DNA of 64,000 nucleotides from an uncultured Acidobacteriota bacterium. Its GTDB lineage: Bacteria > Acidobacteriota > Thermoanaerobaculia > UBA5066 > Gp7-AA6. Location: the NCBI GenBank assembly GCA_963733955.1, contig CAVTEW010000003.1, forward strand, positions 1,308,322 to 1,372,321, written 5' to 3'. Made by a program: the position numbers and the translations under genes. Positions 3,054 to 48,616 of the stretch are shown here, piece after piece. Every line of letters starts with the position of its first letter. Position 1 is the first letter of the stretch. The notes beneath the pieces are model-generated. The model did not search any database and was not told the DNA's origin. It saw only the letters and a list, made by a program, of their open reading frames with translations.

Positions 3054-3140
3054 GGGGAGGCATTATTCACGAAGGCGCCGAGAACCGACAGGCAGGCCGC
3101 GTGAGGCGTAAGGCGTGAGGCGTGAGGCGGGACGTGGCCC

Positions 3141-3201
3141 GGTCGCGGCGCGCGTAGTCTCCTGAGCGGAAGCGAAGGAGGAGGCGCGCGCCGCGGGAGC
3201 C
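3141..3201. repeat. ~60-bp dispersed repeat, identical copy at 60351..60412, with an internal 10-bp GC stem (GCGGCGCGCG...CGCGCGCCGC)
   Basis: GGT(C)GCGGCGCGCGTAGTCTCCTGAGCGGAAGCGAAGGAGGAGGCGCGCGCCGCGGGAGCC is present at both loci, each next to GGCGTGA heptamer arrays. Confidence 0.85.
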
Positions 3202-3222
3202 GGAACGAAGTGGAGGCGACGT

Positions 3223-12651: not shown

Positions 12652-12956
12652 GCGGGAAGGGTGGGTCCCGTTTCCGGGTGCGTCGCGGGTCCTTCCGCGG
12701 TCGCCGGCGGGGCGGCCTCGACCGGTTTGGGTCCGGTCATCGATTGCGCGACCGTGTCCTTGACGCCGTTGGCCTCGGACTTGACCTGGTCCATTTCGTG
12801 CTCGATCGTCTTCTTCAGGTCGTCGGAGGCTCTCTTGAACTCGGACAGTCCCTTTCCGATGGACTTCCCGATTTCAGGCAGTTTCTTGGGCCCGAAGATG
12901 AGCAGCGCCAGGAGAAAAATCAGCATCAATTCGGGCATTCCGATGGAGCCGAACAT
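12648..12956 (-). CDS. tatA: twin-arginine translocase TatA/TatB-family protein
   Basis: MFGSIGMPELMLIFLLALLIFGPKKLPEIGKSIGKGLSEFKRA. Confidence 0.85.
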   Translation of the reverse strand: MFGSIGMPELMLIFLLALLIFGPKKLPEIGKSIGKGLSEFKRASDDLKKTIEHEMDQVKSEANGVKDTVAQSMTGPKPVEAAPPATAEGPATHPETGPTLPA

Positions 12957-13049
12957 GTTTCCTCCAGGGATGGATTCTACGCCGATCGCCGACGCCGCCT
13001 ACGACTTTCCCCCCGGCCGTGTCACAATGAAGGCCAGAGGAGGACTCCC

Positions 13050-16372: not shown

Positions 16373-19187
16373 TTGACCGCGAAAAGCCGCCTGATCCCGA
16401 GCCTGGCCGCCCTGCTGGTCGCCCTTTCCCTGTCCGGACAGACCCCCGCGCCGAAGAAGACGAAGACGCGCTCGAGGACGGTCCCCGCGCCGGCCCGGGC
16501 GTCCGGCGCCGGCCCCCGGATCGAGTTCGAGAAATACACGCTTCCCAACGGCCTGCAGGTGATCCTGCACGTCGACCGGAAGCTGCCGATCGTGCACGTG
16601 AACGAGTGGTTCCATGTCGGCTCCAAGAACGAAAAGCCGGGGCGGACCGGTTTTGCCCATCTCTTCGAGCACGAGATGTTCGAGGGCTCCAAGAACGCGC
16701 CGGGAAAATACTGGGCCCGGATGGAGCTGGCCGGAGCCAACGTCTCGGAGGGAGGCGTCAACGGCACGACCAACAACGACCGCACCAACTACTTCACGAC
16801 CGTCCCGTCGGGCAGCCTCGAGTACGCCCTGTGGATCGAGTCGGATCGCCTGGCGACGCTCGGGCAGCACCTGACCAAGGAAAACCTCGACGCCCAGCGC
16901 GCCGTGGTCAAGAACGAGCGGCGTCAGGGCCTGGAGAACCAGCCGTACGGACGGGCCTTCGACCTGATCGCCCAGAACCTCTTTCCGGCGGGCCATCCGT
17001 ATTCCTGGTCCGTGATCGGCAGCCAGGAAGACCTCTCCGCGGCGTCCCTCGAGGACGTCCAGGAGTTCTTCGCGCGGTACTACGCGCCCAACAACCTCTC
17101 CCTCGTCATCGCGGGAGACTTCGACCCGGCCGCGGCCAAGAAGCTGGTGGAGAAGTATTTCGGCGACATCCCTCCGGGCCCGCCCCTGGACCGGCCGGAG
17201 CGCTGGATCCCGGAGCTGCCGGGCGAGAAGATCGTCGAGGCCGCCGACCGGGTGGCCCAGGAGCGCGTCTACATGGTCTGGCCGTCTCCGGAGGGGTACG
17301 CCCCGGGCGACGCGGAGCTCGACCTGGCCTCGTTCATTCTCGCCGACGGCCTGTCCTCGCGCCTCCAGAAGGTGCTGGTCCACGACCGGGAGCTCTGCAC
17401 CGCCGTCAACTCCTTCCAGTCGTCGCAGGAGATCTCCGGCTTCTACGCGGTCATCGCCACGGCGCGCCCCGGAGCGCCGCTCCCGCTGATCGAGAAGATC
17501 GTGACCGAGGAGATCGCGAAGCTGGCCAGGCAGGGTCCCACGCCGGCGGAGCTCGCGCGCGCGAAGACCAAGTGGGAGTACTCCTTCGTCTCCGGTCTGG
17601 AGCGCATCGGCGGATTCGGCGGGAAGGCCGACCGGTTGAACTCGTACAACACCTACCTGGGCGACCCGGGGAAATTCGACTTCGACCGCGACCGCTACCA
17701 GAACGCGACGGCGCAGGACGTCCGAAAGGCCGTGGCCCGCTGGCTCGACACGTCCCATCGTCTCCTGGTCCGGTTTCATCCCGAGAAATCGGGGCGCGTC
17801 GCCGAAGCGGCCTCTGGACCGCTCCAAGCAGCCCGCCCTCGGCGCCGACACGCCGTTCCGCGCGCCGGAGGTCCGGTCGGCGACCCTTCCCAACGGGCTC
17901 GAGGTCCTGGTGGTCGAGCGGCACGATCTGCCCAAGGTGGCCGTCACGCTGGCTTCCCGCGCGGGCTCGATGGCCGATCCGCCCGGGAAGGACGGAACCG
18001 CCTACCTGACCGCCGCGACGCTCAGCCTGGGCACGAAGACCCGCAAGGCCCTGGAGATCGAGTCGGCGTTCGGCGACCTCGGCACGTCTCTGGACACCCA
18101 GACGCAGAGGGAGAGCGTCCGGCTCGGATTCGAGGTCTTGAAGCGCAATCTCGACCCGGCCCTGCGGCTCCTGGCCGACGTCGTGCGCGACCCGACCTTT
18201 CCCGAGACGGAGGTCGAGCGGGAGAAGAAGCAGCACTTGGACGAGCTCGGCCAGCAGGAGAAGAACGGCAGCGCGGTCTCCCACGCGCGTGCGGGCGATG
18301 CTGCTCTTCGGTCGAACCCATCCTTATGGCCGCGCGGTGCAGGGTCTTCCCGAGACCGTCGCGAGCTTGACCCGGGAGGATCTCGCGGCGTTTCACAAGG
18401 AGCGGTACGCGCCGGGAGGCAGCGCCCTGGTGTTCGCGGGGGACGTGACGCTGGACGAGGCCAGGGCCCTGGCCTCGCAGGTCTTCGGCGCCTGGAGCGG
18501 CTCGGCGCCCGCGGCCGTGGCGGCCCCGCCGCCTTCGCCCGCGCCGGGCGGAAAAATCTATCTGGTCGACCGGCAGGACGCGGCCCAGACGGTGGTCAGC
18601 CAGTCCCTGCCGGGCCTGCCGCGGACGGCCGCCGATTACAGGGCCCTGGCCGTCGTCAACGGAGTCTGGGGCGGCGCGGTGAGCGCGCGGTTGAACCTGA
18701 ATCTGCGCGAGGACAAGGGCTATTCCTACGGCGTCTTCTCCGGGCTCGTGCCTTATCGGGATCAGGGGATCTGGAACGCCGCGGGCGGAGTGCAGACCAA
18801 CAAGACCAAGGAGTCGGTCGCCGAATTCGAAAGCGAGCTCAAGGGGATCGGCGGCGCGCAAACCGATCACCGAGCAGGAATTCGATTCCCACAAGTCCCG
18901 GATCGTCCGCGGCTATGCCCAGAAGTTCGAGACGGTCGGCCGGGTCGCCGGGGAGGTCGCCGATCTCTGGACCGACGGGCTGCCCATGTCGACGCTCCAG
19001 AAGGACTATGACGAGACGTAGCAGATCACGCTGGCCGGCGGCGCGGGACGCGGCGCGCAAGCACGCGGCCGCCGACAAGGCCATTCTTCTCCTCGTGGGA
19101 GACCGCGCCAAGATCGAGCCGGGCGTGAAGGAGCTCCACCTGGGCGAGATCGTCGTGCTGGACACGGAGGGAAAGCCGGCGAAGTGA
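16373..19187 (+). pseudogene. M16 (insulinase/PqqL-like) two-module zinc peptidase, ~938 codons, broken by at least four frameshifts (near 17.81, 18.29, 18.85 and 19.02 kb)
   Basis: HLFEHEMF HxxEH motif. Continuous M16-like sequence can be followed across three frames (ORFs 16373.., 17910.., 18289..), ending ...LLLVGDRAKIEPGVKELHLGEIVVLDTEGKPAK. Confidence 0.6.
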
Positions 19188-24073: not shown

Positions 24074-25625
24074 CTATCGCCCCCCGTCCAGGATTTCCCT
24101 GATCTTCTTTCCCAGCATGGCTGGAGTGAAGGGCTTCTGCAGGAAGTGCGTGCCGGGCTCCAGGGCGCCTTCCGGCGCCACCGCCTCGTCGCCGTAGCCC
24201 GAAACGAAGAGGACGGGCGTCCCAGGACGCAGACGCTGGATGTGAGCGGCCACGTCGCGCCCGGTCAGTCCGGGAAGCATGACGTCGGTCACCAGGATGT
24301 CGATCGGCCCTTCGTGCGTTCCCGCCGCGCCGATGGCCTCCGCCGCGTCGCCCGCGGGGATCACCGCGTAGCCCTGGAGTTTCAAGAGCTTCAGAACGAG
24401 AGCCCGCACCTCCGGCTCGTCCTCGACGAAGAGAATCGTCTCCGATCCTCTGGTGGAAGCCGTGGCCCGGGCGTGTTCGATGGCCGAAAGGGGCGCGTCG
24501 ACCCGGGGCAGGTAGACCTTGAAGACGCTTCCGTTGCCCGGCTCGCTGTAGACCCAGACGTAGCCGCCGCTCTGCTTGACGATCCCGTAGACCGTCGACA
24601 GTCCAAGCCCGGTCCCTTGCCCCCTCGCCTTGGTCGTGAAGAAGGGCTCGAAAAGCCGGGCCTGGATCTCGTGAGGAATGCCGACGCCCGTGTCGGAAAC
24701 CGCCAGCTGCGCGTATTCGCCGGGCTCGACCGGAAAGTCCTTGCGCCACCTCGTTCCGTCCAGCTCCGTGTTGCGCGTCTCGATCGAGAGTTTGCCGCCC
24801 CGCGGCATCGCGTCACGGGCGTTGATCGCCAGATTCAAGATCACTTGCTCGATCTGCCCGGGATCGGCCAGCACGTGCCAGAGGTCCGGGCTCGCCGAAG
24901 TGATGAGGTCGATGTTCTCGCCGATGAGCCGAACGAGCATGTTGGAGACGCCGCGCACGACCTCGTTCAAGTCGAGCACCCGAGGCTCCAGAACCTGGCG
25001 CCGGGAGAAGGCCAGGAGCTGGCGCGTGAGCGCCGTGGCTCTTTCACCGGCCTTGAGAATCTCCTCGGCATGCTCGCGCCGCGTGTCCCCCGCCGGCAGC
25101 TCGGTCAGGAGCAGAGCGCTGTAGCCCTGGATCGCGGTCAACAGGTTGTTGAAGTCGTGCGCCACGCCCCCCGCCAATCGTCCGACGGCATCCATCTTCT
25201 GAGACTGGATCAGGCGCTGCTCGAGCTCCCGCTGCTCCGTCACGTCGCGGGCGATGCCGACGACCGTCGGTCTCGCGCCCGAATCCCTGGAAACCGAGCG
25301 CCGCACGACGGCGAGGGTTCGCGCCGGCCGTTCCGGCAGCGAGAATTCCTCCGGCGGAACGGCAAACGACCCGCGCTCGATCGCCGCTCGATCCTCCCGC
25401 TCGTATCGGGCTGCCCGCTCGGGGTCGAAGAGGTCGCGGTCGGTCCGGCCCAGGATGGCTCCCGCGTCTCTCCCGACCAGGCGGGCGAACTCGCCGTTGA
25501 TGGCGGCGTAGCGCAAGCCCTCGTCCTTGACCCAGGCCGGATCTCCGATTGACTCCAGGAGAGCCTCCATCCGGGCCCGGTCCAGACCCGAGTCTTTCTC
25601 CCCCTCGGTCTCCCTGTCGTCCATC
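24074..25625 (-). CDS. hybrid sensor histidine kinase (PAS - HisKA - HATPase - C-terminal REC)
   Basis: HDFNNLLTAIQG H-box, HATPase G-boxes, C-terminal receiver ILFVEDEPEVR...DVMLPGLTG. Start taken at MDDRETEG. Confidence 0.85.
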
Positions 25626-25807
25626 ACTCTCCCTCGGGCGGCAACCGGTCCCCGACGTGTCTGTCGGAATGCACCGCTCCAAAGTTGAAGTGGCTCGCCG
25701 GAGGCGAAATCCACACAAACTTTTTTTGCGAAAGTGAAATAGTTGAGCTCCGCAGGCGTCATTTGGGCGCAAGGCGCCGGTTCGGTTAGAATGCCGAAAA
25801 CCCAATC

Positions 25808-26308
25808 ATGTCGACGGAGTTCCCCCAGACCGCCCGGCAAGTCGTCGAGTCGGTCCTGTTGGATCCTCAGGAACGCAAGAAACTCGTCGGTTTCGCCGGA
25901 GCGCGCTACGGAATCCGGGAAGAGGACGCTGAGGATCTGCTTCAGGAAACCGCCCTGGAGCTCCTGCGGCAGCGGCACTCCGTGAGGAGCCCCCAGGCCT
26001 ACCTGTTCACCGTTTTCAAGAACCGCTGCGTGCGGTTCTTCCGGACCCGCAAGCGGCAGGCCGCCGTCGAGCTCGACGAGCAGATGCCTGACCCGACGTC
26101 GGTCGCGGCGGGGGAGAAGCGGGAACGTCATCTGGCCGTCCGCCAGGCGCTGTGCCGAATCTCGTCCGCTTGCCGAAAGCTCCTGGCGTCCTTCTACGTC
26201 GAAGGCAAGAGTCTCAAAGAAACGTCGGCGGAGAGCACGTATGCTTTCAGCGGGATGGGCAATACGATCAATCGTTGCCTGGAGAGACTTCGCGCATGCA
26301 TGGAATGA
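25808..26308 (+). CDS. ECF sigma-70 family factor
   Basis: Region 2 EDAEDLLQETALEL and region 4 LKETSAESTYAFSGMGNTINRCLERLR. Confidence 0.8.
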   Translation: MSTEFPQTARQVVESVLLDPQERKKLVGFAGARYGIREEDAEDLLQETALELLRQRHSVRSPQAYLFTVFKNRCVRFFRTRKRQAAVELDEQMPDPTSVAAGEKRERHLAVRQALCRISSACRKLLASFYVEGKSLKETSAESTYAFSGMGNTINRCLERLRACME

Positions 26309-27693
26309 CGCAGCACCTCGACGACTTCACCCTGCTGCGTTACGTCGCGGGTGACCTGGACGCGTCGGAACGAACTGCGGCGTCCGAACACCTCGATGCC
26401 TGCGCCCCCTGCAAGGCAACCCACCGCGAGATCGAAGAATTGGACGAGGAGCTGAAGGCGATCGCGCAGGATCCGTCCACGCGGCTGGACTTCGAGGTCG
26501 AGGAGCTGCCGGAGGAGGATCCGTTCCTAAGGCGGCCACGACGGGAGTCTCGCATGCGCCGCCCCAATCGGGACACGCCGATGGCGAGCGCCCTCGAAGC
26601 CTCCGAGGAAGGGGGAGTGCTCTCCGGAACTGTTCTGTCCGCGATCAAGGGCTGTCCTGAAGATCTGCAATCTCTTGTCGATCGCCTGGATCTTACGGAC
26701 TTGTCTTATCGCTTCGCGCTTCTCTACGGCCTTCAGGAGGCGGGGAAGCGGATCTCGGAAGCCCCTTACCGGATTCTGCGATCAGCCGAGTCCTTGTTGG
26801 AGAAGCTCCGTCGAGACGGTCCGAGTGCCGACCGGATCGTCCCGGAGGAGCTCCTGAACGGTCAGATCCATCAGCTTGCCGGTAGTGCATGCCTCTGGAC
26901 GGGGGAATACGACAAAGCGGGTACTCACCTGCATTTGGCGTACGAGTACCTCGGTACGACGAGCGACGACACTTCGCTCGCAGTCGTCGAGCTGTTCGAG
27001 GCTCAGCGTCGATCGTTCTTGGGACGTGGGAACGAAGGACTGGCCCTCGCGCGCCGCTCGTTCTCGACCTTCGAGTTGTTCGAAATGAGGGACTACATGG
27101 CTCGCGCCCGGGTCGTCATCGGGCTTGCGCTCTTCGATCTCGGCAAGTACCAGGAAGCAGTGGAGTCCTATCGTCTGGCGATTCCAACCTTCGAGTCCGA
27201 AGGCCTTTGGGCGAACTATGTCGGGGCCGTCAACAGCGTCGCCACGGCCTTGGAGCGCCAGGGAAATCTCGACGGCGCACGCCGAGAGTTCGCGCGCGCC
27301 CTGAAGCGAGTCTCCCGTGAACGGGACCGCGCCTTCGTCGCCGCTATCCGAAAGGGGCTGGCCGAAGTTCTCTTCTCCGCGAAACGGTATCGCGAGGCGG
27401 CGATCGCATCCTCCCAAGCCGGTCGCCTCTATGGCGAAACGAAACAACTTTACTTTCGGTTGTGGGCCCTGCTCTTCGAGATCGAGAGTTGGGCCCGGGC
27501 CGGTGAGGCCGACCGCGCCTGTCACCGCCTCGACCTGTTCCGATCGGAGGTTGCCCGTCTCGGAGCGCTGGATGGATCGATCTGCCGAAACATCGAGTCG
27601 GCTCTCAAGGGTGAGCGTCAGGACTTTGCCGCGATCGCGCTCTTGAGGACAGAGGCCTCGGAGACCCTCAAGGAGCGTTTGCTCGGCGCTTAG
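26296..27693 (+). CDS. anti-sigma factor: zf-HC2 N-terminus with a cytoplasmic TPR-like C-terminal domain
   Basis: LLRYVAGDLDASERTAASEHLDACAPCKA. Overlaps the sigma stop by 13 nt. ORF 26152.. over-extended. Confidence 0.7.
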   Translation: MHGMTQHLDDFTLLRYVAGDLDASERTAASEHLDACAPCKATHREIEELDEELKAIAQDPSTRLDFEVEELPEEDPFLRRPRRESRMRRPNRDTPMASALEASEEGGVLSGTVLSAIKGCPEDLQSLVDRLDLTDLSYRFALLYGLQEAGKRISEAPYRILRSAESLLEKLRRDGPSADRIVPEELLNGQIHQLAGSACLWTGEYDKAGTHLHLAYEYLGTTSDDTSLAVVELFEAQRRSFLGRGNEGLALARRSFSTFELFEMRDYMARARVVIGLALFDLGKYQEAVESYRLAIPTFESEGLWANYVGAVNSVATALERQGNLDGARREFARALKRVSRERDRAFVAAIRKGLAEVLFSAKRYREAAIASSQAGRLYGETKQLYFRLWALLFEIESWARAGEADRACHRLDLFRSEVARLGALDGSICRNIESALKGERQDFAAIALLRTEASETLKERLLGA

Positions 27694-28066
27694 CCTCCGA
27701 TACCAAGACCCCCCCGAAAAAATCTGTCAAAAAGCGCCCCTTCCTAGGCACGTACTAGGTCGGAAGGCGGCCATGGAGCGCTCCACTCCGCTTCCAGATT
27801 CCCCGCCCAGCGCGGGAACCAAGGAGGTTGTGTGTGAACGCCGAAAATACGCCTGTTCCGGCCTGAATCTCTGGCCCCCGTCGGTCCGGCTCGCGCGGGC
27901 CGGGCCGGCGGCCTTCGTTAGGTCAGCTCAACCCCGTGTCCGGTTGGCGATCGGCTAATAATCGACCGCGTGACTGGAGGGCGACGCAGCAGGCGACGTG
28001 GGTCGGCTTCTCGACGATCGTCATCGCAGGATGACGTTGGAACCGGTCCAGGGAAGTCCCTCAGAC

Positions 28067-28377
28067 GATCCACGGAAGCCTTCTATCGCGAGTATTTTCT
28101 GCCGCTCGTCCGCCGGGCGACCTGGCGGCACGGACTGTCCTCCGACGACGCCCGGGATATCGTGCAGGACGCCTTCCTGATCGCGCTCGAGAAAATGGAT
28201 TTCGCCAGAAGCCTGGAAGCCTGGATCCTCTAGAGGGGCGCGGCCGGCCATCGAGGAAGAGAAAATGATCCCCGAAGGCATCGCGGCTTACGGCCTTCTC
28301 GGCGAATCCGTCCGCCGCCGTCAGATCAACCGCCAGGCCCTGCGCGATCTTCACGGCTACTTCCGCCACGATCGCTG
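28067..28377 (+). pseudogene. decayed remnant of a sigma-region-2-only / TPR-partner cassette: a region-2 fragment, then a 38-aa C-terminal partner fragment
   Basis: FYREYFLPLVRRATWRHGLSSDDARDIVQDAFLIALEK (28067-28233) resembles the 30974 gene product. MIPEGIAAYGLLGESVRRRQINRQALRDLHGYF (28264-28377) matches the C-terminus of the 31353 protein (KMVPEGMAALALLRQSLRNHRINREALRNLHGYF). Confidence 0.55.
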
Positions 28378-28494
28378 ACCACTGCGGGCTTCAAATCCGC
28401 CGCCCGTCCTCGGGACCTGGGAACCCTCTCACGGAGCACGGCTTACTCCTCGCGACACTAAGTTAGGTAGAGGATTGCTCTGAGAGGAGGGACC

Positions 28495-29670
28495 ATGCGG
28501 AGTCGGACCGCGGTCGCGGCATCGATCGTCGGCATTTTTCTCAGTCTTCCAGCAGTCGGTCGGCAGGCTCTTGCGAGTGCGGATGCGGGCGGCCAGAGCC
28601 CAGCGGCCGGCCTCCACCGATCGGCGACGAAGCCAGAGAACGTCGCGGCGAGCAATACCTGGTTCTACACGATCCGCGACGAGAACAACCGGCCGGCGAT
28701 CGAGTATCACCTCGGCCAGGCCGGCAACGTCATCACCGATCGCATTTACGCCTACCTCGGCAACACATTGGTAGCCACCTACGAGGCGAGCGGCAATTCG
28801 CCCGGGTGGGTTTACTACGGCACCGATCACCTGGGCTCCGTGCGGACCGTGATGTCCGGTACGACCTGCACGCAGCAGTTCCAGCCTTTCGGCGAACCGG
28901 CCGGGCAGAGCTGCTCAACTGGCAGCCCGGTCAAGTTTGCCGGCATGGAACGAGACTCGACCTCTGGCAACGACTACGACCATGCGAGGTTCCACGGGGG
29001 GGGGAGCACGCTGGGACGGTTCCTCGGTCCTGACAAGCTCCAGGGTCATCCTGCCGATCCGCAGTCCTGGAACCGTTACGCATACGCCCGGAACAGCCCG
29101 GTCACTCTCATCGATCGCAATGGCATGGAGTTCGGCTCGCCGGGTGGAGGTGCCGAGCTGCACACGGCTGTCCTAAACTTTGAGGCGACCTACCATCACA
29201 GCGAGCCGGCGATGGCTGAGCTCGGCCAGTCGGTCGCCCTGCAAGAGACCCTTGGTCCCGTGGGAACGGCGGCTGTGCTCATCTCTGGCGCCGGCCCTGC
29301 GGTCAGACTCATCTCAGAGATCTCGAGCATTCGGCCTCCCACTGCTCCGCGCGAGGCCGATTCGAACACGCTAGGGCCCGGCCCGTACTCGGGCAGATCG
29401 ATTCCGGCTCGTGGAGAGCAACGCAATTTCACCGTAGCAGAGCGATCTCAAATTAACGAGGCAGGTTCAGAAACCGGCTGTCATACCTGCGGTACAAAGG
29501 TTCCAGGAACAAAGAGCGGAAATTTCGTTCCCGACCATCAGCCTCCGAACGCGCTCAACGAGCCGGGCGAGCCGCAACGTCTGTATCCGCAATGCATAGA
29601 CTGCAGCCGGCAGCAGGGCCTTCAAATCATCCGCACATTGAAGGACGTCCTGGGACCGCCCGTGAAATGA
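28495..29670 (+). CDS. small secreted RHS-repeat-associated-core toxin: signal peptide, RHS core, then an HNH/EndoVII-like nuclease-type C-terminal tip (putative)
   Basis: Signal peptide MRSRTAVAASIVGIFLSLPAVG. The core (WFYTIRDENNRPAIEYH...YYGTDHLGSVR...FAGMERDSTSGNDYDHARFHGGGSTLGRF) is near-identical to the core of the giant rhs. C-terminal CHTCG...DHQPP...CIDC motif. Confidence 0.8.
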   Translation: MRSRTAVAASIVGIFLSLPAVGRQALASADAGGQSPAAGLHRSATKPENVAASNTWFYTIRDENNRPAIEYHLGQAGNVITDRIYAYLGNTLVATYEASGNSPGWVYYGTDHLGSVRTVMSGTTCTQQFQPFGEPAGQSCSTGSPVKFAGMERDSTSGNDYDHARFHGGGSTLGRFLGPDKLQGHPADPQSWNRYAYARNSPVTLIDRNGMEFGSPGGGAELHTAVLNFEATYHHSEPAMAELGQSVALQETLGPVGTAAVLISGAGPAVRLISEISSIRPPTAPREADSNTLGPGPYSGRSIPARGEQRNFTVAERSQINEAGSETGCHTCGTKVPGTKSGNFVPDHQPPNALNEPGEPQRLYPQCIDCSRQQGLQIIRTLKDVLGPPVK

Positions 29671-29677
29671 TCTGGCC

Positions 29678-30325
29678 GTGAGCTCCGAAGAGGTCGTGGT
29701 TCTGGCGGAAGGTCTCCGGGCCCGCACCGTTGGTCTTCGCCGAGCGGGTCGTCCCGAGGTGGCTGTCGCCGTTGACGACGCCGCGCTAATGCCTGAAGCG
29801 GAGCGGTTTCTCGGCTTCGTGTCGAGATACATCCTGAGGGCGAAAGTCACGATTAGAGACGGCGAGACGCTGGCGTACGGCTACTGGTTGACGAAGTTCG
29901 TCGCGGTTAACGCCGGAAACTTGGACGTATGGGAGTACGCTAGCTCGGGTACTCACTTCTCTCCGGGCGCCACTCTTACGCTGACGTACTGGCGCGAGCA
30001 ACACGCCATTTGCGAGAAAGCCGGGACCGAGTTCAGGCCGCCCCGTCCGGATGAGCTCGCGGCCGTATCCCCAGCAGTTCTCGAGGGCGCGTCCGTTCAG
30101 GGCGTCAGATACCCGAGCCCCGCACCGATGTCAGGGTGGTGGATTACCGCCGACGACTACACCGGCGACATCAAGATGCTGGGGACGGAACATCTCTATC
30201 ACCTGACGGACCTGCGCCCGGATCTGGCACGGTACCTGGCGCTGCCGCAGGGCTTCAGGTTCGATCTTGCCAACTACGAAGACGTGTGGTTCGATCGAGC
30301 GGTGGCCGACCAATCTGCGATCTGA
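29678..30325 (+). CDS. putative cognate immunity protein of the orphan toxin
   Basis: Starts 8 nt after the toxin stop. No recognisable enzyme motif. Assignment by position only. Confidence 0.45.
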   Translation: MSSEEVVVLAEGLRARTVGLRRAGRPEVAVAVDDAALMPEAERFLGFVSRYILRAKVTIRDGETLAYGYWLTKFVAVNAGNLDVWEYASSGTHFSPGATLTLTYWREQHAICEKAGTEFRPPRPDELAAVSPAVLEGASVQGVRYPSPAPMSGWWITADDYTGDIKMLGTEHLYHLTDLRPDLARYLALPQGFRFDLANYEDVWFDRAVADQSAI

Positions 30326-30361
30326 CCGCCCGCCCCGAAATCTAGCGACGCTAGAGCAACC

Positions 30362-30895
30362 GTGAGCCATATCGGCCTTTTGGCATGGGTCGAAGAACAT
30401 CTGAAGCCTTTCGGCTCGGAACGGCAGCCCCGATCAAGACGGACTCCCAATACCCGTTGCTACCCGGTCGTTTCCCACCTTGTTGACTGCACTTTGGAGG
30501 TCGGGTACTCTCCTCGCGCTGCAAGGGCAAGGATTCTAGATTTGGCGCAGCGCCGCGCGGAGGTTGACTCCGTCTTCCGCCACTCGCTCGGAGCGATCCA
30601 CTTCGCGCTGGTGGACCTTTACCTGCTGAGCGAAGCAGGGGCTGCGGAAGTCGCCGGGAATCTCTACGTCTGGTTTGAACGATTCGCCGAACGCGGGAGC
30701 AGGAGGGAGATGCCCGTTTCGACGCTTCGTTTCCCGTTGCTGCTCGCCGCGTGTCAGGCCGGCGTCGCGGCGAAGCAGCGCGAGCTTCGCGGAGGGTCCT
30801 GCGTGGAAGCGGGATTGCGGGAGACACTCGCTCGAGCGCCGGAGGACGTGGCGCGGGAATTAGCGTTGAAGCTACCGCTTGGCAATGACATGTAA
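30362..30895 (+). CDS. hypothetical protein (possible second immunity or cassette accessory protein)
   Basis: ORF only. Lower local GC. No motif recognised. Confidence 0.35.
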   Translation: MSHIGLLAWVEEHLKPFGSERQPRSRRTPNTRCYPVVSHLVDCTLEVGYSPRAARARILDLAQRRAEVDSVFRHSLGAIHFALVDLYLLSEAGAAEVAGNLYVWFERFAERGSRREMPVSTLRFPLLLAACQAGVAAKQRELRGGSCVEAGLRETLARAPEDVARELALKLPLGNDM

Positions 30896-30973
30896 GCTAC
30901 TGCACCCAAATCACTTCGCACTCGCGACATATAGCTGTTAGGAAGGTGCTTTGAACGACGGCATCGCATTCGC

Positions 30974-31336
30974 TTGAGCGGATGGAAGGGGCGATTCTCG
31001 CCCTCGCGCCGGGTGGCTTCACGCCGGGTTGTCAGCCCCGAGAAGCTCGAGGAATTCCATCTCAAGTTCTTTCTGCCCCTCGTGCGGCGAGCGATACGGC
31101 GGCATGGACTTTCGAACGAGGATGCCCGTGACGTTGTTCAAGAAGCTTTTGTCGTCGCGCTCGCCAAGCTCGGCTCAACCAGCTATGCCCTGGCTTGGTT
31201 GAAGCAGGTCGTGGACTTTCAGTCGATCAATCTGAAGCGGACGTCCGCGCGCCGAGCACGGCTCCTTGCGCAGTGGGCTGGAACGAGTCTTCCCGAAGGT
31301 TCCACTCTGCTCGAAGTCCCGGCGGACGAAATCTGA
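30974..31336 (+). CDS. sigma-70 region-2-only protein (no region 4)
   Basis: FFLPLVRRAIRRHGLSNEDARDVVQEAFVVALAKL...AWLKQVVDFQSINLKR matches sigma70_r2. The protein ends ~40 aa later with no region 4 helix-turn-helix. Confidence 0.6.
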   Translation: MSGWKGRFSPSRRVASRRVVSPEKLEEFHLKFFLPLVRRAIRRHGLSNEDARDVVQEAFVVALAKLGSTSYALAWLKQVVDFQSINLKRTSARRARLLAQWAGTSLPEGSTLLEVPADEI

Positions 31337-31352
31337 CGTGCGGAGTAATCAA

Positions 31353-32957
31353 ATGGCCACCCAGATGATGAGAGATCAGATCGCTGCGTGGCTCGAAGCC
31401 ACTCGAGGCATTGAGCTCGTGGTGGGGCTCGACGCGAAAGAGGCGGAACGGCGGGCGCTCGCGCTACTCGCGGCGATCCTGGAAAATCGGATCTCGCCCG
31501 ATTCTATGGTCCTCGACGAGGAAGCCAAGCAGGTCCTCTCAATTCTCGTCAGGCAGCTCGCCGAGTTGAACGCGGATAAAGGCGATCGTCTCCGCCAAGC
31601 GGCTGCCGTTGCGAGATTTATCGGTCGCCTTCGATGGTCCGATGACAACTTCGGCGAGAAGGAGGATCTTCTTCTCGAATGCGAGCAGGTTGGCCTCGGT
31701 GAGGACGGGATAACTCTTGGAGGAACCCCACCGAACACTCCGGAGTTCGAAGTCCACGCCGGCAAAGTGGATCCGATCAAAAGCGAGTCTCTGCAGCTCC
31801 AGATCGGCCTGGCCCCCACATTCCCGGTCATCGGTGGAGGGGAGAATACCAATTCGTCAAGGTCTGGTCGGCCGCGCCGGCGGCTGCTCTCCGAGAATCA
31901 GGCGAGCGAGGCGGCCGAGCGAACTTTGGCAATTCCAATTTCGGAGCGCGCGGGCAAGGAGATCGAGCTCCGGCTCGAAGCGCCGGAGACACTGTTGGCC
32001 ATGAGCGGCCTCCTGCGTGCGCGCCTGGATGTATCGCCGGCGACGGCCCGCGAGGAGGCGGATTACCTCTATCGGTTCCTGGACAAGCCGAAGCGGGAAA
32101 TCGGGCTCTTCGACGAGAGAGATTATTTCCTTGGCGAGATGGCGTTGATCGCGGCGACGGCGTGCAGACACCTCTCACTTCGTGAAGATTCCAAGCGCTG
32201 GCTCGATCGATCCGAGGCCGGGTTCCGCAAAACGATCAACGGGGCCGCGGAATGGGCGCGGGTCTCGTATCAGCGGCTGGCCTTGAGAATGGAGGAGCGG
32301 GAGTTCGAAGAGGTCTTGAGTCTGGCTCCATCTCTCTTCGATGATCTGGTCAACCGAGGCATGGGGGAGCACGCAATCAAGTGCCGATTCTTGGAGGGTG
32401 GAGCGCTGATCGAGATGGGCCGACTGGCGGAGGCGGTGAAAATCTTCGAGAGCCTCTGCGAGCATTGCGCACTTTTGAAGAACGAGAACCTTCTTGCAGG
32501 CGCTTACACGAACCTGACCCATTGCCATGCTCTACTCGGTGAATCGAAGGAAGCGCTCTCGGCCTCAAAGGAGGCTTCTCGGCTCTTACGGCGGGCCGGT
32601 GACCGGATCGGCTTGGCAAAGCTTCAGTGGTTCCTCGGAAATCTTCTTCGCGAACAGCATCAACTCACCGCAGCAATAGAGATTTATCGCTCGGCGCAGA
32701 GTGAATTCAGCGAGCTCTCCATGCAGGCCGACGTCGCGGCGATTCACCTGATCGTGGCGGATCTCATGCTGGAGCTCGGCCAGGACGCCCAGGCCCGCTG
32801 GGAGATCCAGGCGGCGCTTCCGGTGATCGACGAGAAGAAGATGGTGCCGGAAGGCATGGCGGCCCTTGCCCTCCTTCGCCAGTCCCTACGAAATCACCGC
32901 ATCAACCGCGAGGCGCTGCGAAACCTGCACGGATACTTCGAGGATCTGGGCTCTTAA
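31353..32957 (+). CDS. TPR-like partner protein (similar to the C-terminal domain of the 26296 anti-sigma; lacks zf-HC2 and TM)
   Basis: ATG 31353 (MATQMMRDQIAAWL). Alpha-helical TPR-like C-terminal half. Its C-terminal tail is repeated in the 28264 remnant. Confidence 0.6.
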   Translation: MATQMMRDQIAAWLEATRGIELVVGLDAKEAERRALALLAAILENRISPDSMVLDEEAKQVLSILVRQLAELNADKGDRLRQAAAVARFIGRLRWSDDNFGEKEDLLLECEQVGLGEDGITLGGTPPNTPEFEVHAGKVDPIKSESLQLQIGLAPTFPVIGGGENTNSSRSGRPRRRLLSENQASEAAERTLAIPISERAGKEIELRLEAPETLLAMSGLLRARLDVSPATAREEADYLYRFLDKPKREIGLFDERDYFLGEMALIAATACRHLSLREDSKRWLDRSEAGFRKTINGAAEWARVSYQRLALRMEEREFEEVLSLAPSLFDDLVNRGMGEHAIKCRFLEGGALIEMGRLAEAVKIFESLCEHCALLKNENLLAGAYTNLTHCHALLGESKEALSASKEASRLLRRAGDRIGLAKLQWFLGNLLREQHQLTAAIEIYRSAQSEFSELSMQADVAAIHLIVADLMLELGQDAQARWEIQAALPVIDEKKMVPEGMAALALLRQSLRNHRINREALRNLHGYFEDLGS

Positions 32958-33044
32958 CCGACGCTGCCAGGCGCCGAGCCTGAAGGAACTTCCGCCGGCC
33001 GTCCCTACGGAGAATCTGCAGATTCGATCCTGGGCAATTAGGGC

Positions 33045-33809
33045 TTACCGCGATCGTCGAACCCTTGGCGTATCCTCTTTGAGAACGAGGCGCAGGAGCC
33101 TTTCCAGCCGGGCGTCGGCCGAGAGGTCCGGGGCGGCTTCGGTTGCCAGCTGCCGGTGCTGGCGCGCGAACTGAATCGCCGCGGAAACCACGAGCGCCTT
33201 GGGATTTCTGGGGGGCATGGCGCTGCGCTTCCAGAACCTAGAGAACCACGCCTCCAGCTCTCGTTCCAGCAGGCGGATTTCCGGATCGGTGAACCGCCAG
33301 ACTTCAGCGAGCAGAACCCGGACGAGGGGGAGCGCACGATCCAGAGTGAGCAGGAGCTCAGTCTCCAACGTGCTACGTCCTGCGCCTGCGGGAGGCTCCT
33401 CGGGTCCGAAGGCCGTTTCGTGCGATTCGGCGATCGGCTCTGACACCGTACGCAGGTGCGCCGTTGCGCAAGCTCGCAGCAGAGACTCCTTTCCGTTGAA
33501 CTCGCCTTCCCACGAGAGTCCCTGGATGAACCCCTGGACCGATTTCGCGCGTCGCTCGATCTCGCCGGGAAGTCGGCCTGGGCCTGGGAGAACGCGGTAG
33601 GCGAGCGCGTAGAGGATGTTCTTCAAGTCATCGTCGAGATTTATCGTTTCGGGGTTCGCGGTGCCGTCGTGGATCGACCGCTCCAGCAATTCGGCGCGGA
33701 GAATCGTTTCGTCTTCGTCAATGCGAGAGTGTGTTGCCTCCTGGATGAGCGTGGCCATCCGGTCGACCCAGTTCTCCAGTTCGCGGTCGTACGGGCGGTG
33801 GCTGCGCAT
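33045..33809 (-). CDS. partner protein of the minus-strand sigma-region-2-only gene (anti-sigma-like, alpha-helical)
   Basis: ATG (MRSHRPYDRELENW) overlaps the upstream stop as ATGA. ORF 33045..34676 over-extended. Confidence 0.5.
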   Translation of the reverse strand: MRSHRPYDRELENWVDRMATLIQEATHSRIDEDETILRAELLERSIHDGTANPETINLDDDLKNILYALAYRVLPGPGRLPGEIERRAKSVQGFIQGLSWEGEFNGKESLLRACATAHLRTVSEPIAESHETAFGPEEPPAGAGRSTLETELLLTLDRALPLVRVLLAEVWRFTDPEIRLLERELEAWFSRFWKRSAMPPRNPKALVVSAAIQFARQHRQLATEAAPDLSADARLERLLRLVLKEDTPRVRRSR

Positions 33810-34378
33810 CAATCCTCCTCTTTCCCAGGACGCGCCCGAGCGGCGTCCGGACCCCAGTAGGCGAGAAGCGTGGCACGGCGGCCGCGCTTTCGGTTGAAGT
33901 TGAGGACGAGCCGTTCGACAACGCCCTCGAGCCATGCTCGCGTGTCTTTCAGAGGCCCCGTCCTTTCGAGGAGAACCACGAACGCCTCCTGAACGACATC
34001 CTCCGCGTCTTCGGGCGGGAGGCGGTGCTTCCAGCGCACTTCGATCGCGAGTTCCTTGAAGAGAATTGCGTATGAGCCATTGAGCTCCTTGAATCTCAGC
34101 TCGTCCGAAGCTCGAAAGGCGCTGCGCCAGCGCAGAGGGCTCCGCCTCGCCCTGGCTCGGGCCGCCGCGCCCGCTCCTCGCCCTTCGGTCGCGCGCATGC
34201 TTTCGTGGGTGCTCTTCGACATAGTAGTGTCGCGAGCCCCAAATCCTTTTTCCTGAGAACGTTCCAGAGCATACAACGAACGGCGGTCTCGGCAAGCCGC
34301 GCTTGGTCGGTGGCCAGAAGCCTGTCCGAGCACTCTCGCGCAACTTGCTGCGTGCCTGTCGGTTCTCGTTCGCGACAC
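33809..34378 (-). CDS. sigma-70 region-2-only protein (second paralog; true start may be an internal Met near 34225)
   Basis: PPEDAEDVVQEAFVVLLERTGPLKDTRAWLEGVVERLVLNFNRKR region 2, no region 4. Confidence 0.55.
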   Translation of the reverse strand: MSRTRTDRHAASCARVLGQASGHRPSAACRDRRSLYALERSQEKGFGARDTTMSKSTHESMRATEGRGAGAAARARARRSPLRWRSAFRASDELRFKELNGSYAILFKELAIEVRWKHRLPPEDAEDVVQEAFVVLLERTGPLKDTRAWLEGVVERLVLNFNRKRGRRATLLAYWGPDAARARPGKEED

Positions 34379-34410
34379 TAAGAAGGTAGAGAAACCAGTT
34401 ACGAGGGTCG

Positions 34411-45070: not shown

Positions 45071-46046
45071 CATGCACGTTCCCTTTTCGACGTACGTCGC
45101 CCGCCACGGCCTTCCCCTGGTCTTCGTCAACGTTCTGGGGGAGCAGCTGGGTCTGCCGATTCCGGCCATGCCGACCCTCATCGTGGCCGGGGCCCTGGCG
45201 GCGGAGCGGAATTTCCGGGCCTCGAACGCGCTCTTGATCGCCGTCTTCGCCTCCGTCCTGGCAGACAGCGTCTGGTACCTTCTGGGTCGGCGCTACGGCT
45301 TTCGAGTTCTGAAGACCCTCTGCCGCGTTTCGCTGTCGCCCGACTCGTGCGTGCGGCAGACCACGCTCCTGTTCGAGAAATGGGGAATGCCGTCGTTGCT
45401 CGTCGCCAAGTTCGTTCCCGGATTCTCGACCGTGGCGCCGCCGCTGGCCGGCGCGGTCGGAGCCTCGCTCCCGGCGTTTCTGCTCTTCGATTCGGGCGGG
45501 GCGCTGCTCTGGGCCGGCGCCGCGATCGGAGTCGGGATGGTCTTTCATCGGGCCGTCGACCGGATCCTCGCGTTCCTGACCTCGCTCGGGGGTTGGGCCC
45601 TGGTTCTCCTGGGCGGCGCCCTGCTCGTGTTCGTCGCCTGGAAGTGGTGGCAGAGACGGCGGTTCTACAAGTTCCTCCGGATGGCGCGGATTACCGTCGC
45701 CGACGTGTCGACTCTCATGGACGCGGGCGAGAAACCCCTCGTGCTCGACGTGCGCACCGACGCCGCCCGCCGCGCCGACCCGCGGCGCATCCCCGGCGCG
45801 CGCCCGATGACCTTCGATCGGATCTCCGAGAACCTCCGCGATTTGCCACTCGACCGCGACATCATCCTGTATTGCACGTGACCCAACGAAGCATCGGCGG
45901 CCCGTGTGGCCCGCGCGCTGATTGACCAGGGGTTCACCCGCGTCCGGCCCCTGGCCGGAGGTCTGGAGGCCTGGGTCGACGCCGGTCTGCCGGTGGAGAC
46001 CGACACGGAGATGGCTCCCGCGCCCGAGAAAGCCGCATCCGTCTGA
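45071..46046 (+). CDS. DedA-family membrane protein fused to a C-terminal rhodanese domain, with an in-frame TGA at 45879-45881
   Basis: DedA N-terminus (LVFVNVLGEQLGLPIP...). Rhodanese-like C-terminus ...DIILYCT[TGA]PNEASAARVARALIDQGFTRVRPLAGGLEAWVDAGLPVE continues in frame for 54 codons to TGA 46044-46046. Confidence 0.55.
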
Positions 46047-48616
46047 TGAACGGTTCCTCGGTCGATCGGAAGGTCACCGCCGGCCTGCTCGCGTCGGCGG
46101 GGCTCACGGCCCTCGCGTTGTTGTCCTATGCGGCGGGCTGGAGCCTCTGGCTGCCGGGCCTGGCGGCGATCGGCCAGCTCGCGCTCCTCTTCGCCTTGCA
46201 GCTCGTCCTCCGACGCGAGCTCGGAGGGCATTCGCGCGCGGCGCAACAGCAGCGCCAGCAGCTCGCGCTCACCGCGGCCATCACGGAGAACCTCGGGGAG
46301 GGGGTGTACGCGCTGGACGAGGCCGGACGCTTCACCTTCGTCAATCCGAGCGCCGAACGGATGCTCGGCTGGAGCGTCGCGGACCTGATCGGCCGCCCGG
46401 CGCACGCTACGATCCATTTCCAGCGAGCCGATGGTTTGCCCTTCCCGCCGGAGGACTGTCCGCTCGTCACCGTGCTCGCTTCCGGCCTCCCGTACAAGAA
46501 CCACGATGACGTTCTGACCCGCCGGGACGGCACGATGTTCCCGGTGGCCTACAGCTCGACGCCGATCCTGGAAGGAGGCCGTGTCCGCGGCGCGGTGGTG
46601 GCCTTTCACGACATCGCCGATCGCAAGCGCGCGGAGTCCGACCTGGCCGAGCGCGTGCACCTGGCGGCCTTCGCCGCGGCGATCGGCGCAGCGCTGACCA
46701 AGGCGGACAGCCTGGGCCACGCCCTGAACCTGTGCACCGAGGCGATGGTGCGGCACCTGGGAGCGGCCATGGCTTCGATCTGGAGGCTGGACGAGAAGGA
46801 CGGCGTCCTGGAACTCGTCGGAAGCGCCTGGTCGGACCGCCCCCTCTTCGGGCCGGCCGGCCGGGTTCCGGTCGGTGAGTTTCGCATCGGGGCGATCGCG
46901 CGTGACCGCCGGCCCGCGCTGATCGATCTGTCCGCCGGTCCGGAGCGCGAGGACGACAAGGACTGGGCCACCCGCGAGGGAATGACCGCCTTCGCCGGCT
47001 ATCCGATGATCGTCGAGGACCGCGTCGTCGGCGTCCTGGCTCTTTTCGCCCGCCGCCGCCTGACGGAGGTGGCCCTGGACGGTCTGGCCAGCGTGGCCGA
47101 CGAGATCGCCCTGGGAATCGACCGCGCCCGCGCGGCCCAGGCTCTGGAAAAGAGCGAGGCGTCCACGCGCGCGCTCCTGCAGAACATGCTGACCGGCGTG
47201 ATCACCACCGACGAGCGGGGCGTCATCGAAACGGTCAATCCGGCGGCCGAGAGGACGTTCGGCTGGCCGGCGCAGGAGCTGATCGGGCGGCAGCTGGCAA
47301 CGCTTCTCCCGATCGACGACGGGGCGGGCGCCCGGGCCTTCCTGCGGGATGCGCGGGACAAGGCGCTGGGCCGCGTGACGGAGTGGGAGGCCCGGCGCAG
47401 GAACGGCGAAGTCTTTCCCATGGAGCTCGCCCTCTTCCACTTCCAGACTCCCGACGGCGGGAGGCATTTCGCGGGAAGCGTGCGGGACATCTCCGAGCGC
47501 CGCGAGGTGGATCGGTTGAAGAAGGAGTTCGTCTCCACGGTCAGCCACGAGCTGCGCACGCCGCTGACCTCCATCCGGGGATCGCTCGGACTGCTCTCGG
47601 GGGGCGTGCTCGGCGAGCTGCCCGCCGAGGCCAAGGAGATCGTCTCCGTGGCCGAGCGCAACGTCGTGCGCCTGGTGCGATTGATCAACGACATCCTCGA
47701 CCTGGAGCGGCTGGACACGGGGCGGATGGAGATGCGCTTCGAGGACCTGCCGGTCGCCGATCTCGTGGCGCGCTCGCTCGAAGCGGTGCGCGCCTTCGCC
47801 GACGCGGAGGGAGTGGTCCTGGAGGCAGGCCCGACGCAGGCGCGCGTCCTGGCCGACGGGGATAGGGCCGTCCAGGTTCTCGTCAACCTCCTGTCCAACG
47901 CGATCAAGTTTTCGCCGCGCGGCGGCCGTGTGTCCGTATCGGCCGCTGCCTCCGGCGACGGAATCGAGATCCGGGTCGCGGACCGCGGGCGGGGCATTCC
48001 CGCGGCGCAGCGGGAGTCGGTCTTCGAGCGGTTCCGCCAGGTGGAAGCCTCCGACGCGCGGCAGAAGGGAGGCTCGGGACTGGGCCTGGCCATCTGCAAG
48101 GCGATCGTCGAACAGCACGGCGGCACGATCGGCGTGGAGAGCGAGGAGGGGAAGGGCTCGACCTTCTGGTTCCGACTCGCCGCCGCGCGCGCCGCGGCGC
48201 AATCGGACTCGGGAACCGGCGCGGGAGCGCTGGAGGCCCTGGTCGTCGAGGACGACGAGACGCTGGCCGGCCTCCTCGAACGCCAGCTCGGAGGCGAGGG
48301 CCTCTCCGTTCGCGTGGCCCGCTCGGGCGCCGAGGCCCTGAGCTGCGCCCGCGAGCGCCGGCCCAACCTCCTCGTGCTCGACATCGAGATCCCCGACGGC
48401 GACGGCTTCTTCGTCGTATCGTCCATGCGCGAGGACCCGCGGCTCCGGACGGTGCCGCTCCTGGTCTACACTGCCCAGGATTTGACTGCCGCGGAGCGGG
48501 AGCGCCTGCGCCTGGGGCCCACCCGGTTTCTCACCAAGTCGCGCTCCAGCGAAGACGGCCTTCGGGCCGCTGCGCGCGAGCTGGTGGGGCAGGGTGAGTC
48601 GGGAGGCCTGGCGTGA
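46046..48616 (+). CDS. hybrid sensor histidine kinase (2 TM - PAS - GAF - PAS - HisKA - HATPase - REC)
   Basis: VSHELRTPLTSIRG H-box, HATPase N/G boxes, C-terminal receiver LVVEDDETLAG...DIEIPDGDG. Confidence 0.9.
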   Translation: MNGSSVDRKVTAGLLASAGLTALALLSYAAGWSLWLPGLAAIGQLALLFALQLVLRRELGGHSRAAQQQRQQLALTAAITENLGEGVYALDEAGRFTFVNPSAERMLGWSVADLIGRPAHATIHFQRADGLPFPPEDCPLVTVLASGLPYKNHDDVLTRRDGTMFPVAYSSTPILEGGRVRGAVVAFHDIADRKRAESDLAERVHLAAFAAAIGAALTKADSLGHALNLCTEAMVRHLGAAMASIWRLDEKDGVLELVGSAWSDRPLFGPAGRVPVGEFRIGAIARDRRPALIDLSAGPEREDDKDWATREGMTAFAGYPMIVEDRVVGVLALFARRRLTEVALDGLASVADEIALGIDRARAAQALEKSEASTRALLQNMLTGVITTDERGVIETVNPAAERTFGWPAQELIGRQLATLLPIDDGAGARAFLRDARDKALGRVTEWEARRRNGEVFPMELALFHFQTPDGGRHFAGSVRDISERREVDRLKKEFVSTVSHELRTPLTSIRGSLGLLSGGVLGELPAEAKEIVSVAERNVVRLVRLINDILDLERLDTGRMEMRFEDLPVADLVARSLEAVRAFADAEGVVLEAGPTQARVLADGDRAVQVLVNLLSNAIKFSPRGGRVSVSAAASGDGIEIRVADRGRGIPAAQRESVFERFRQVEASDARQKGGSGLGLAICKAIVEQHGGTIGVESEEGKGSTFWFRLAAARAAAQSDSGTGAGALEALVVEDDETLAGLLERQLGGEGLSVRVARSGAEALSCARERRPNLLVLDIEIPDGDGFFVVSSMREDPRLRTVPLLVYTAQDLTAAERERLRLGPTRFLTKSRSSEDGLRAAARELVGQGESGGLA

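Follow-up and report, generated by a model that had tools for sequence, protein, structure and literature searches.

Can a sigma factor be reduced to region 2 and still direct transcription? The question is raised by a 64-kb stretch of DNA from an uncultured Acidobacteriota bacterium (64,000 nucleotides (nt) of contig CAVTEW010000003.1, referred to below as the window), living in soil and belonging to the class Thermoanaerobaculia, where two cassettes each encode a short protein that matches sigma-70 region 2 only, here called S2, together with a partner protein, close to genes for Rhs polymorphic toxins. We rate the S2 system as a sigma/regulator module in which the sigma is truncated, the partner domains are new and a distinctive sequence element, the box, lies upstream. 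Our preferred reading, to which we assign a probability of roughly 0.45, is that S2 is a working minimal sigma with an anti-sigma-like partner and drives promoters that carry the box. A sequence-only reading of the window had supposed that such a system was undescribed, and neither literature searches nor a large survey of polymorphic toxin systems returned a published description of one.

S2 proteins form a conserved family confined to sigma region 2

S2 gene 1 (30974-31336, plus strand) is of the long-partner type and encodes 120 amino acids (aa), or 107 aa if translation begins at the alternative GTG at 31013, as in P0001. S2 gene 2, of the short-partner type, lies on the minus strand. Its longest open reading frame (ORF) begins at 34378, and the likelier start is the ATG at 34198 (33809-34198, 129 aa), since this start matches an independent gene call and since the conserved upstream box falls inside the longer ORF; the subfamily of this gene is common to two other loci, L104 and L105. 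A third copy (27970-28375, plus strand) is broken: 27970-28233 corresponds to the first half of region 2, and 28235-28375, in another frame, to the last ~45 codons of the tetratricopeptide repeat (TPR) domain T that ends the long partners (tblastn, 53% identity to the C-terminus of T). To judge by its sequence, this remnant is an internally deleted cassette. The sequence-only reading had placed two intact cassettes and one remnant at these ORFs, and we retain that layout with two corrections, to the start of S2 gene 2 and to the nature of its partner.

All three copies exceed the Pfam Sigma70_r2 cutoff of 24 bits (27.2 bits for gene 1, 24.7 for gene 2 and 24.3 for the remnant), and no other Pfam domain was found in them. 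NCBIfam models of extracytoplasmic function (ECF) sigma factors cover only the N-terminal halves in the S2 copies, whereas a full-length, 166-aa ECF sigma encoded in the window (25808-26308, plus strand), used as a control, aligns with these models from end to end. A search of 5.8 billion proteins returned 87 S2 homologues, all of 82-135 aa and all with region 2 only, and the source names of these homologues place the family in the Thermoanaerobaculia (Acidobacteriota). Sigma70_r2 (PF04542) was matched in 33/33 aligned members and the region 3 and region 4 models in 0/33 at E<=1, which bears out the earlier claim that region 4 is absent. The same 33 members contain no Response_reg domain.

The conserved core of the family, FYRxxFLPLVRRAxRRHGLSxEDARDVVQEAFVxALxKxxxxGNxxAWLxQVVDxLxxNLxRKxxRRAxLxxW, spans regions 2.1 to 2.4. 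Near-invariant motifs are EDARDVVQEAF in region 2.2 and GN(A/P)xAWL and VVDxLxxNxxRxxxRR in regions 2.3/2.4; the best conserved positions are those of regions 2.2 to 2.4, and they include the core-binding and -10-recognition motifs. The S2 profile aligns to the sigma-2 domains of SigR, SigJ, SigW, SigH, CnrH and SigL, including the loop preceding the WL motif. Conservation of the region 2.2 motif, the specificity loop and the region 2.4 residues argues, at the level of sequence, for retained contacts with both polymerase and DNA. Region 2.4 is followed by a variable C-terminal tail (median 23 residues, median net charge -5) that is acidic in 97% of members and typically finishes in EEL, GGDY or EDD.

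Could these genes be functionless remnants of ECF sigma genes that were truncated by Rhs-driven rearrangement? Pfam scores lie barely above the cutoff, and two copies are truncated beside Rhs sequence: the window remnant and the copy at locus L063, where the S2 gene (650-1012) is broken off after '...ALGKLD' beside the 3' end of a convergent Rhs gene (1782-5582). By its sequence, L063 is a second, independent Rhs rearrangement destroying a cassette, like the one in the window. The intact copies already contradict decay as a general explanation. S2 proteins are mutually only 43-60% identical, yet they are uniform in length and strongly conserved, which marks S2 as a conserved family and not a set of gene fragments, and synteny, coupling and upstream box are kept at about 80 loci. 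Decay holds for the remnant only, and as an account of the family we consider it very improbable.

S2 genes are coupled to those of partners assembled from shuffled domains

In the window the ATG of partner 2 overlaps the TGA of S2 gene 2, and at about 80 loci elsewhere a partner gene comes after S2, usually overlapping it; gaps between the two genes measure up to 20 nt. Downstream sequence of 700 nt or more was available for 58 S2 genes; a domain found at the start of both window partners (the N-domain, or N) comes next in 54 of them, and N or a TPR in 57. The pairing proposed from the two window cassettes is thus general in the family.

The long partner 1 (31353-32957, plus strand, 534 aa; orthologues 475-535 aa) and the short partner 2 (33045-33809, minus strand, 254 aa) have only their first ~115 residues, the N-domain, in common, as alignment shows. 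Partner 1 comprises N (aa 1-117, 31353-31703), a disordered linker (aa 118-170) and a TPR-like solenoid (aa 181-526, 31893-32930). This is the plan of the long partners (N-T), in which the linker leads into the ~350-residue solenoid T (AlphaFold pLDDT, the model's confidence score, 86.7). The T domain has Pfam SNAP and TPR_12 matches, is modelled as 16 paired helices at pLDDT >90, and finds its nearest folds (Foldseek) in the Rap, LGN and APC TPR proteins. Short partners (N-F), including partner 2, consist of N and a ~100-residue helical domain, F; in partner 2, N occupies about 33435-33809 and F about 33087-33377 (minus strand), and there is no TPR domain. It had been proposed that the partners resemble the cytoplasmic domain of the zf-HC2 anti-sigma encoded nearby. 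A weak likeness of this kind exists for the TPR part of partner 1 (hhalign 88%, E 3e-6); for partner 2, which has no TPR, the proposal fails.

The N-domain is conserved across 12 aligned partners, with W13, A35, W95, L107 and C110 invariant, and is predicted by AlphaFold to form five helices. An exhaustive profile search found it in just 211 clusters among 1.84 billion representatives, N-terminal in every cluster and, in each context examined, directly after an S2 gene; the proteins that carry it are either about 450-548 aa or, in about 30 of the clusters, about 243-285 aa long. Its fold has no significant match in a viral structure library, its profile has no relevant match among PDB sequences, and neither the HxxxCxxC zinc motif nor a four-helix anti-sigma-domain fold was found at the partner N-terminus. 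In the model of N we see no sigma-4, anti-sigma-domain or gp33 fold. A cryptic region 4 in N was considered and is ruled out by the Pfam, viral structure library and PDB-profile searches.

Both of the domains fused to N also occur as free proteins. F is homologous to a free family of ~134 aa (hhalign 99.4%, E 1.7e-21), a member of which is encoded directly upstream of cassette 1 (30524-30895, plus strand; recognized by alignment and by tblastn identities of 36-41% to five relatives), and T shares ~55% identity with free 368-aa proteins that make up a very large family. At all loci seen, the genes for free F and free T adjoin and overlap by 4-8 nt. By Rosetta-stone reasoning, the fusion of N to either T or F and the co-encoding of F with T suggest that F may bind T and that N, F and T form a partner-switching network around S2.

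In the long partners and in the free 368-aa family alike, conservation is highest over the final ~50 residues of T (window 32780-32950; ...REAEWEILxALPxIEEQKMVPEGFAAVALLRESVxRxKxDxxALRELREHL), which are also the only part of T that survives in the window remnant; they may be a docking site. The ~134-aa F protein was also tried as a degenerate sigma-2 domain, and this was rejected at the sequence level (hhalign 0.1-0.3%, no Pfam match).

This architecture bears on a first alternative, a split sigma in which S2 supplies region 2, the -35 or flap-tip function is supplied by the N-domain, by F or by a protein encoded elsewhere, and the partner is a co-activator. The pairs SigO-RsoA and gp55-gp33 are precedents, S2 and its partner are strictly co-encoded and translationally coupled, and a few positions upstream of the box are weakly conserved. 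Neither the partner proteins nor F has a region 4 or helix-turn-helix (HTH) match in Pfam, and a large TPR sensor joined to N suits a regulator better than a promoter-binding subunit. We regard a split sigma as unlikely.

An oriented box precedes S2 operons and a few accessory genes

Alignment of the regions upstream of S2 genes revealed the box, which consists of TCG[CT]GACA[ACG]TA(T) and, about 6 nt further on, TAGRG. A position weight matrix (PWM) located a box within 160 nt upstream of 70/73 S2 genes, always oriented toward the gene and 33-59 nt from the start codon; conversely, 71/78 of the box sites in 436 kb precede S2. In 55 non-redundant sites the information content is ~24 bits, held in one contiguous 14-bp block, and the core positions T, C, G, G, A, C, A, T and A are invariant or nearly so. 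Upstream of the block the signal is weak: a T ~21 nt before TCG and a TT 6-7 nt before TCG. Variants at position 4 (C/T) and position 9 (A/G/C) show no clean covariation with S2 residues; their variation tracks clades.

Three exact copies of the 11-mer TCGCGACACTA are present in the window, compared with an expectation of 0.03 and a result of 0/100 in shuffles. One copy lies upstream of S2 gene 2 (34212-34235, minus strand, core 34235-34225; exact match, PWM score 19.1). A second, TCGCGACACTA agaag GTAGAGAA (34370-34393, plus strand, core 34370-34380), lies 41 nt before the ATG of the main Rhs gene, and a third, TCGCGACACTA agttag GTAGAGGA (28450-28474, plus strand, core 28450-28460), 45 nt before the ATG of an orphan Rhs ORF. 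No large repeat carrying the three boxes was found, and they are therefore not part of a long duplication. Upstream of S2 gene 1 we recognized, by eye and by string search, a degenerate box, TCGCGACATATA gctgt TAGGAAGG (30922-30946, plus strand), which scores below the PWM threshold. No further PWM site in the window reaches threshold, and there is no PWM match upstream of the remnant.

The box is not the general promoter. Operons of free F and T have canonical TTGACT-N17-TAAACT promoters, which none of 60 S2 upstream regions has, and the adjacent ECF sigma operon of the window (25808-27693) has no box upstream. A scan of 27700-34500 for sigma-70 consensus promoters found nothing upstream of the cassette or Rhs genes. 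The box is thus a specific, oriented, promoter-like element found before S2 operons and before a small number of adjacent accessory genes, most of them of toxin type.

These accessory genes include two type II toxin-antitoxin pairs preceded by a box, a TacA-like/RelE-like pair (L006, 12143-12810) and a Phd/PIN pair (L095, 4187-4930). Both pairs lie just downstream of the partner gene, and both boxes score highly. At two other loci a boxed operon is inserted between T and S2 (L007, 5459-8116; L060, 2581-5300); its products are a secreted cysteine-rich peptide of 99 aa, a protein of 316 aa, a membrane protein of 234 aa and an ABC ATPase, perhaps an export or immunity system of bacteriocin type that is controlled in the same way.

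The distribution of the box also bears on a second alternative, in which S2 is a sigma mimic or decoy that, instead of initiating transcription, titrates some anti-sigma-like protein or sits on the clamp helices of RNA polymerase, and the box is read by another factor such as the ECF sigma at 25808-26308. PhyR-type sigma mimicry provides a precedent, an ECF sigma/TPR anti-sigma pair adjoins the short cassette in the window and at L104, and T of partner 1 bears a distant likeness to the anti-sigma's TPR. However, the core and promoter determinants that are degenerate in PhyR are the best conserved part of S2, and most loci have no full ECF pair nearby. ECF sigmas usually autoregulate their own operon, yet the ECF operon of the window is boxless. 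A decoy had been suggested from the sequence alone; with region 2 core and -10 motifs strongly conserved and with an operon that carries its own promoter-like box, S2 is less likely to be a decoy than a working sigma, and we find the mimic explanation doubtful.

The link to Rhs toxins is consistent only for the short-partner type

A metagenome scan gave 73 cassette loci, and eight longer contexts were examined separately. Gene order at the 73 loci is near-invariant: a dinG-like helicase (minus strand), Peptidase_S13 (plus strand), F, T, S2 and N-T, with T upstream of S2 in 38/39 cases. An Rhs gene is present at 1/73 of these loci (L063) and is absent from 7/8 of the longer contexts, where only L004 has a divergent Rhs gene; at L029 and L030 two S2/N-T cassettes stand in tandem, again without Rhs. 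The long cassette thus belongs to a conserved chromosomal locus and is no mobile module tied to toxins.

For the short cassette the picture is different. S2 with N-F is divergent from an Rhs gene in 3/3 cases, namely the window, L104 (whose short partner is 39% identical to partner 2) and a 12-kb contig of a third organism; the contig of a fourth short cassette, L105, is too short for this to be judged. Beyond the short cassette a convergent pair is found in 3/3, composed of F and a free T in the two relatives and of F, S2 gene 1 and N-T in the window. An ECF sigma, a TPR anti-sigma and a histidine kinase are encoded near the short cassette of L104 too, and the third organism has an unannotated 485-aa gene at the contig end that is possibly a member of an ECF/anti-sigma pair. 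No full ECF sigma/anti-sigma pair was found near most of the loci.

A regulatory link between S2 and Rhs, suggested before from their proximity, gains support from the box, which S2 and Rhs genes have in common in three organisms. Indeed, at L004 and L104 the intergenic region between Rhs and S2 contains back-to-back boxes, one toward each gene. The suggestion of a mobile module dedicated to toxins stands only in part. It fails in general, given one Rhs gene at 73 loci and tandem cassettes without Rhs, and cassettes independent of toxin loci are found for the long type, at its dinG/Peptidase_S13/F/T/S2/partner locus; the short type shows no such independence, being beside Rhs in 3/3. The S2-toxin link is therefore real but partial, the short-partner type alone standing consistently beside Rhs.

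Genes of the island around the window cassettes

The main Rhs gene (34411-43248, plus strand) encodes a polymorphic toxin of 2945 aa with RHS repeats (RHS_repeat, 1.2e-25), Ig-like domains and a C-terminal EC869-like DNase tip (CDI_toxin_EC869_like, 2e-8), and is a candidate target of the box. Two small ORFs follow, one of 143 aa whose start overlaps the Rhs stop (43245-43676) and one of 108 aa (43761-44087). Neither has a Pfam match (43245-44087), and both are candidate immunity proteins for the DNase tip.

The orphan Rhs C-terminal ORF (28495-29670, plus strand, 391 aa) shares the end of the main Rhs core, ...TWFYTIRDE(N/S)NRP...GNTLVATYE..., and has a different toxin tip, for which there was no Pfam match. 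More than a displaced tip, it starts with an ATG of its own and a hydrophobic, signal-like N-terminus (MRSRTAVAASIVGIFLSLPAVG...) and is preceded by a box of its own, and may therefore be expressed as a small independent toxin. The next gene (29678-30325, plus strand) encodes its Imm33-like immunity protein (PF24719, 2e-25). The locus thus has the features of an Rhs system: RHS/YD repeats, a variable C-terminal toxin, an Imm33-like gene after the orphan, and the orphan C-terminal module itself.

The window is G+C-rich, with a G+C content of 0.61-0.65 across ~24-45 kb and 0.68-0.72 on the flanks. The low-G+C stretch (24000-45000) is bounded by two genes for PAS/HisKA hybrid histidine kinases, at 24074-26131 (minus strand) on the left edge and 46046-48616 (plus strand) on the right, and the flanking kinase genes together with the drop in G+C suggest a variable island. 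Next to the left kinase gene, the ECF sigma gene overlaps that of its zf-HC2/TPR anti-sigma (26305-27693, plus strand). Outside the island lie ordinary housekeeping genes, for a Lon protease (3223-5700, minus strand), an S41 peptidase with PDZ domains (12678-14675, plus strand) and an M16 peptidase (16373-18370, plus strand), none of which has a box. No known RNA families or tRNAs were found in the window.

A proposed minimal sigma factor with a switchable partner

We favour a minimal sigma because S2 is a conserved family without region 4, its genes are coupled to those of the partner, the box is specific to its operons, and gp55 of phage T4 offers a precedent. Domain content, family conservation, gene coupling and the shuffling of domains are observed, as are the box itself, where it lies, which way it points and how specific it is; from these we infer polymerase binding, box recognition by S2, binding of S2 by N and of F by T, and the sign of regulation, as follows. 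S2, with a complete ECF-type region 2, an acidic tail of ~23 residues and no region 4, would bind the beta-prime clamp helices of core RNA polymerase and direct transcription from the unusually long single-block element TCG[CT]GACA[ACG]TA ~6 nt TAGRG, the length of the block compensating for the absent -35 contact. The S2 operon would be autoregulated through its own box, and boxed accessory genes would be further targets: Rhs toxins in the window and two other organisms, the two toxin-antitoxin pairs and the cysteine-rich peptide/ABC transporter operon.

The translationally coupled partner would sequester S2 through N, in the manner of an anti-sigma. Its hold on S2 would be controlled by whichever domain is fused to N, either the TPR solenoid T, perhaps through a ligand or peptide, or F, and binding of F to T would provide a partner-switching input. 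In other TPR proteins, EEVD tails dock in the TPR groove; as a speculation by analogy, the acidic-hydrophobic C-terminus of S2 might dock in the groove of T in the same way.

Several points weigh against a minimal sigma. ECF sigmas normally need region 4 and the linker. RsoA, the one cellular precedent for a region-2-only protein, needs a second subunit with region 4 (PMC8103513), and no such subunit was found here in the partner or among the conserved neighbours F, T, dinG and S13. The box is assigned to S2 by association, with no clean covariation between the two, and cassette 1 of the window has a degenerate copy. The box could also be read by another sigma; the weakly conserved T and TT upstream of it could be part of a -35 element read by such a factor, and the full ECF/anti-sigma pair beside the short cassette in two organisms, possibly three, could be the real driver there.

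A fuller version of the minimal-sigma reading is that a Thermoanaerobaculia sigma has been reduced to region 2, initiates from a long -10-type box and is gated by the N/F/T switch, with the short N-F branch serving as a dedicated on-switch for Rhs; this whole is possible rather than probable, and we put it forward tentatively. If S2 acts in the proposed way, no smaller promoter-specificity factor would be known from cells, T4 gp55 would have a counterpart in bacteria, and region 4 and the -35 contact would be dispensable outside phages. The system would also give the first candidate for a dedicated transcriptional switch of Rhs toxins in Acidobacteriota, which would be useful, as it is poorly understood how polymorphic toxins are kept silent and then fired. 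Surveys of ECF sigmas require both domains and would miss proteins like S2; Casas-Pastor et al. noted that split-domain ECFs are still to be identified and expanded on. The occurrence of N, F and T in fused and free form yields a testable interaction map, and the box offers a handle on the regulon in complete genomes of the class.

Comparison with known systems

The partner fold is matched by Foldseek to RapF, RapI, RapH and phage Rap (E about 5e-5, template modelling (TM) score to target about 0.6). As in Rap and other RRNPP proteins, the partner begins with a small helical bundle, from which a linker leads to a TPR solenoid; Rap proteins let go of their target when a ligand occupies the TPR groove. 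There is, however, no sequence relationship, no gene for a Phr-like peptide was seen, and the likeness may be that of a generic TPR fold. A second comparison is with PhyR/NepR/EcfG, where again a sigma-like domain that is not a normal sigma would sit in a network, here of modular N, F and T that suggest competitive binding. PhyR differs in that it keeps sigma-2-like and sigma-4-like parts and a receiver domain, and its core- and promoter-binding determinants are degenerate, whereas S2 keeps the functional motifs and has no receiver.

Closer at hand is the ECF/zf-HC2-TPR pair of the window (25808-27693), with which the S2 cassettes share an ECF-type region 2, a coupled partner, a TPR sensor part and, as is usual for ECF operons, a motif before the operon. 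S2 differs from the ECF sigma in the loss of region 4, a defining part of such a sigma, and of the linker, and its partner has neither HxxxCxxC nor an anti-sigma-domain fold. The motifs appear to differ as well, the S2 box being one long block with weak signal upstream and not a pair of -35 AAC and -10 CGT elements.

In having a sigma-2 domain that stands alone, the S2 system comes nearest to RsoA and gp55. In SigO-RsoA (YvrI-YvrHa) of Bacillus subtilis, a stand-alone, cellular sigma-2 polypeptide is co-transcribed with a partner from a self-activated operon (PMC8103513, PMC7826278). Compared by domain content, S2 is likewise a stand-alone region-2-only polypeptide co-encoded with a partner. 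The S2 partner, however, lacks a sigma-4 or HTH domain, consisting instead of N fused to TPR or F, and the host is acidobacterial; a region-4 subunit of the SigO-RsoA kind was not found in the partner by Pfam, in the fold of N or among the conserved neighbours.

Phage T4 gp55 has sigma region 2 homology only, binds the clamp helices and supports basal transcription from -10-like promoters without a conserved -35 (PMC7892883). S2 resembles it in having sigma region 2 homology without region 4, and both proteins have a C-terminal tail past the sigma-2 fold. They differ in that S2 is cellular and not viral, has a clear ECF-type region 2 by Pfam where gp55 is highly diverged, and ends in an acidic tail. 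No gp33-like fold was found for the partner among PDB or viral models, nor any sign of a sliding-clamp link. The box, by analogy, with its single block and weak upstream signal, is consistent with a -10-only mode of promoter reading of the gp55 type.

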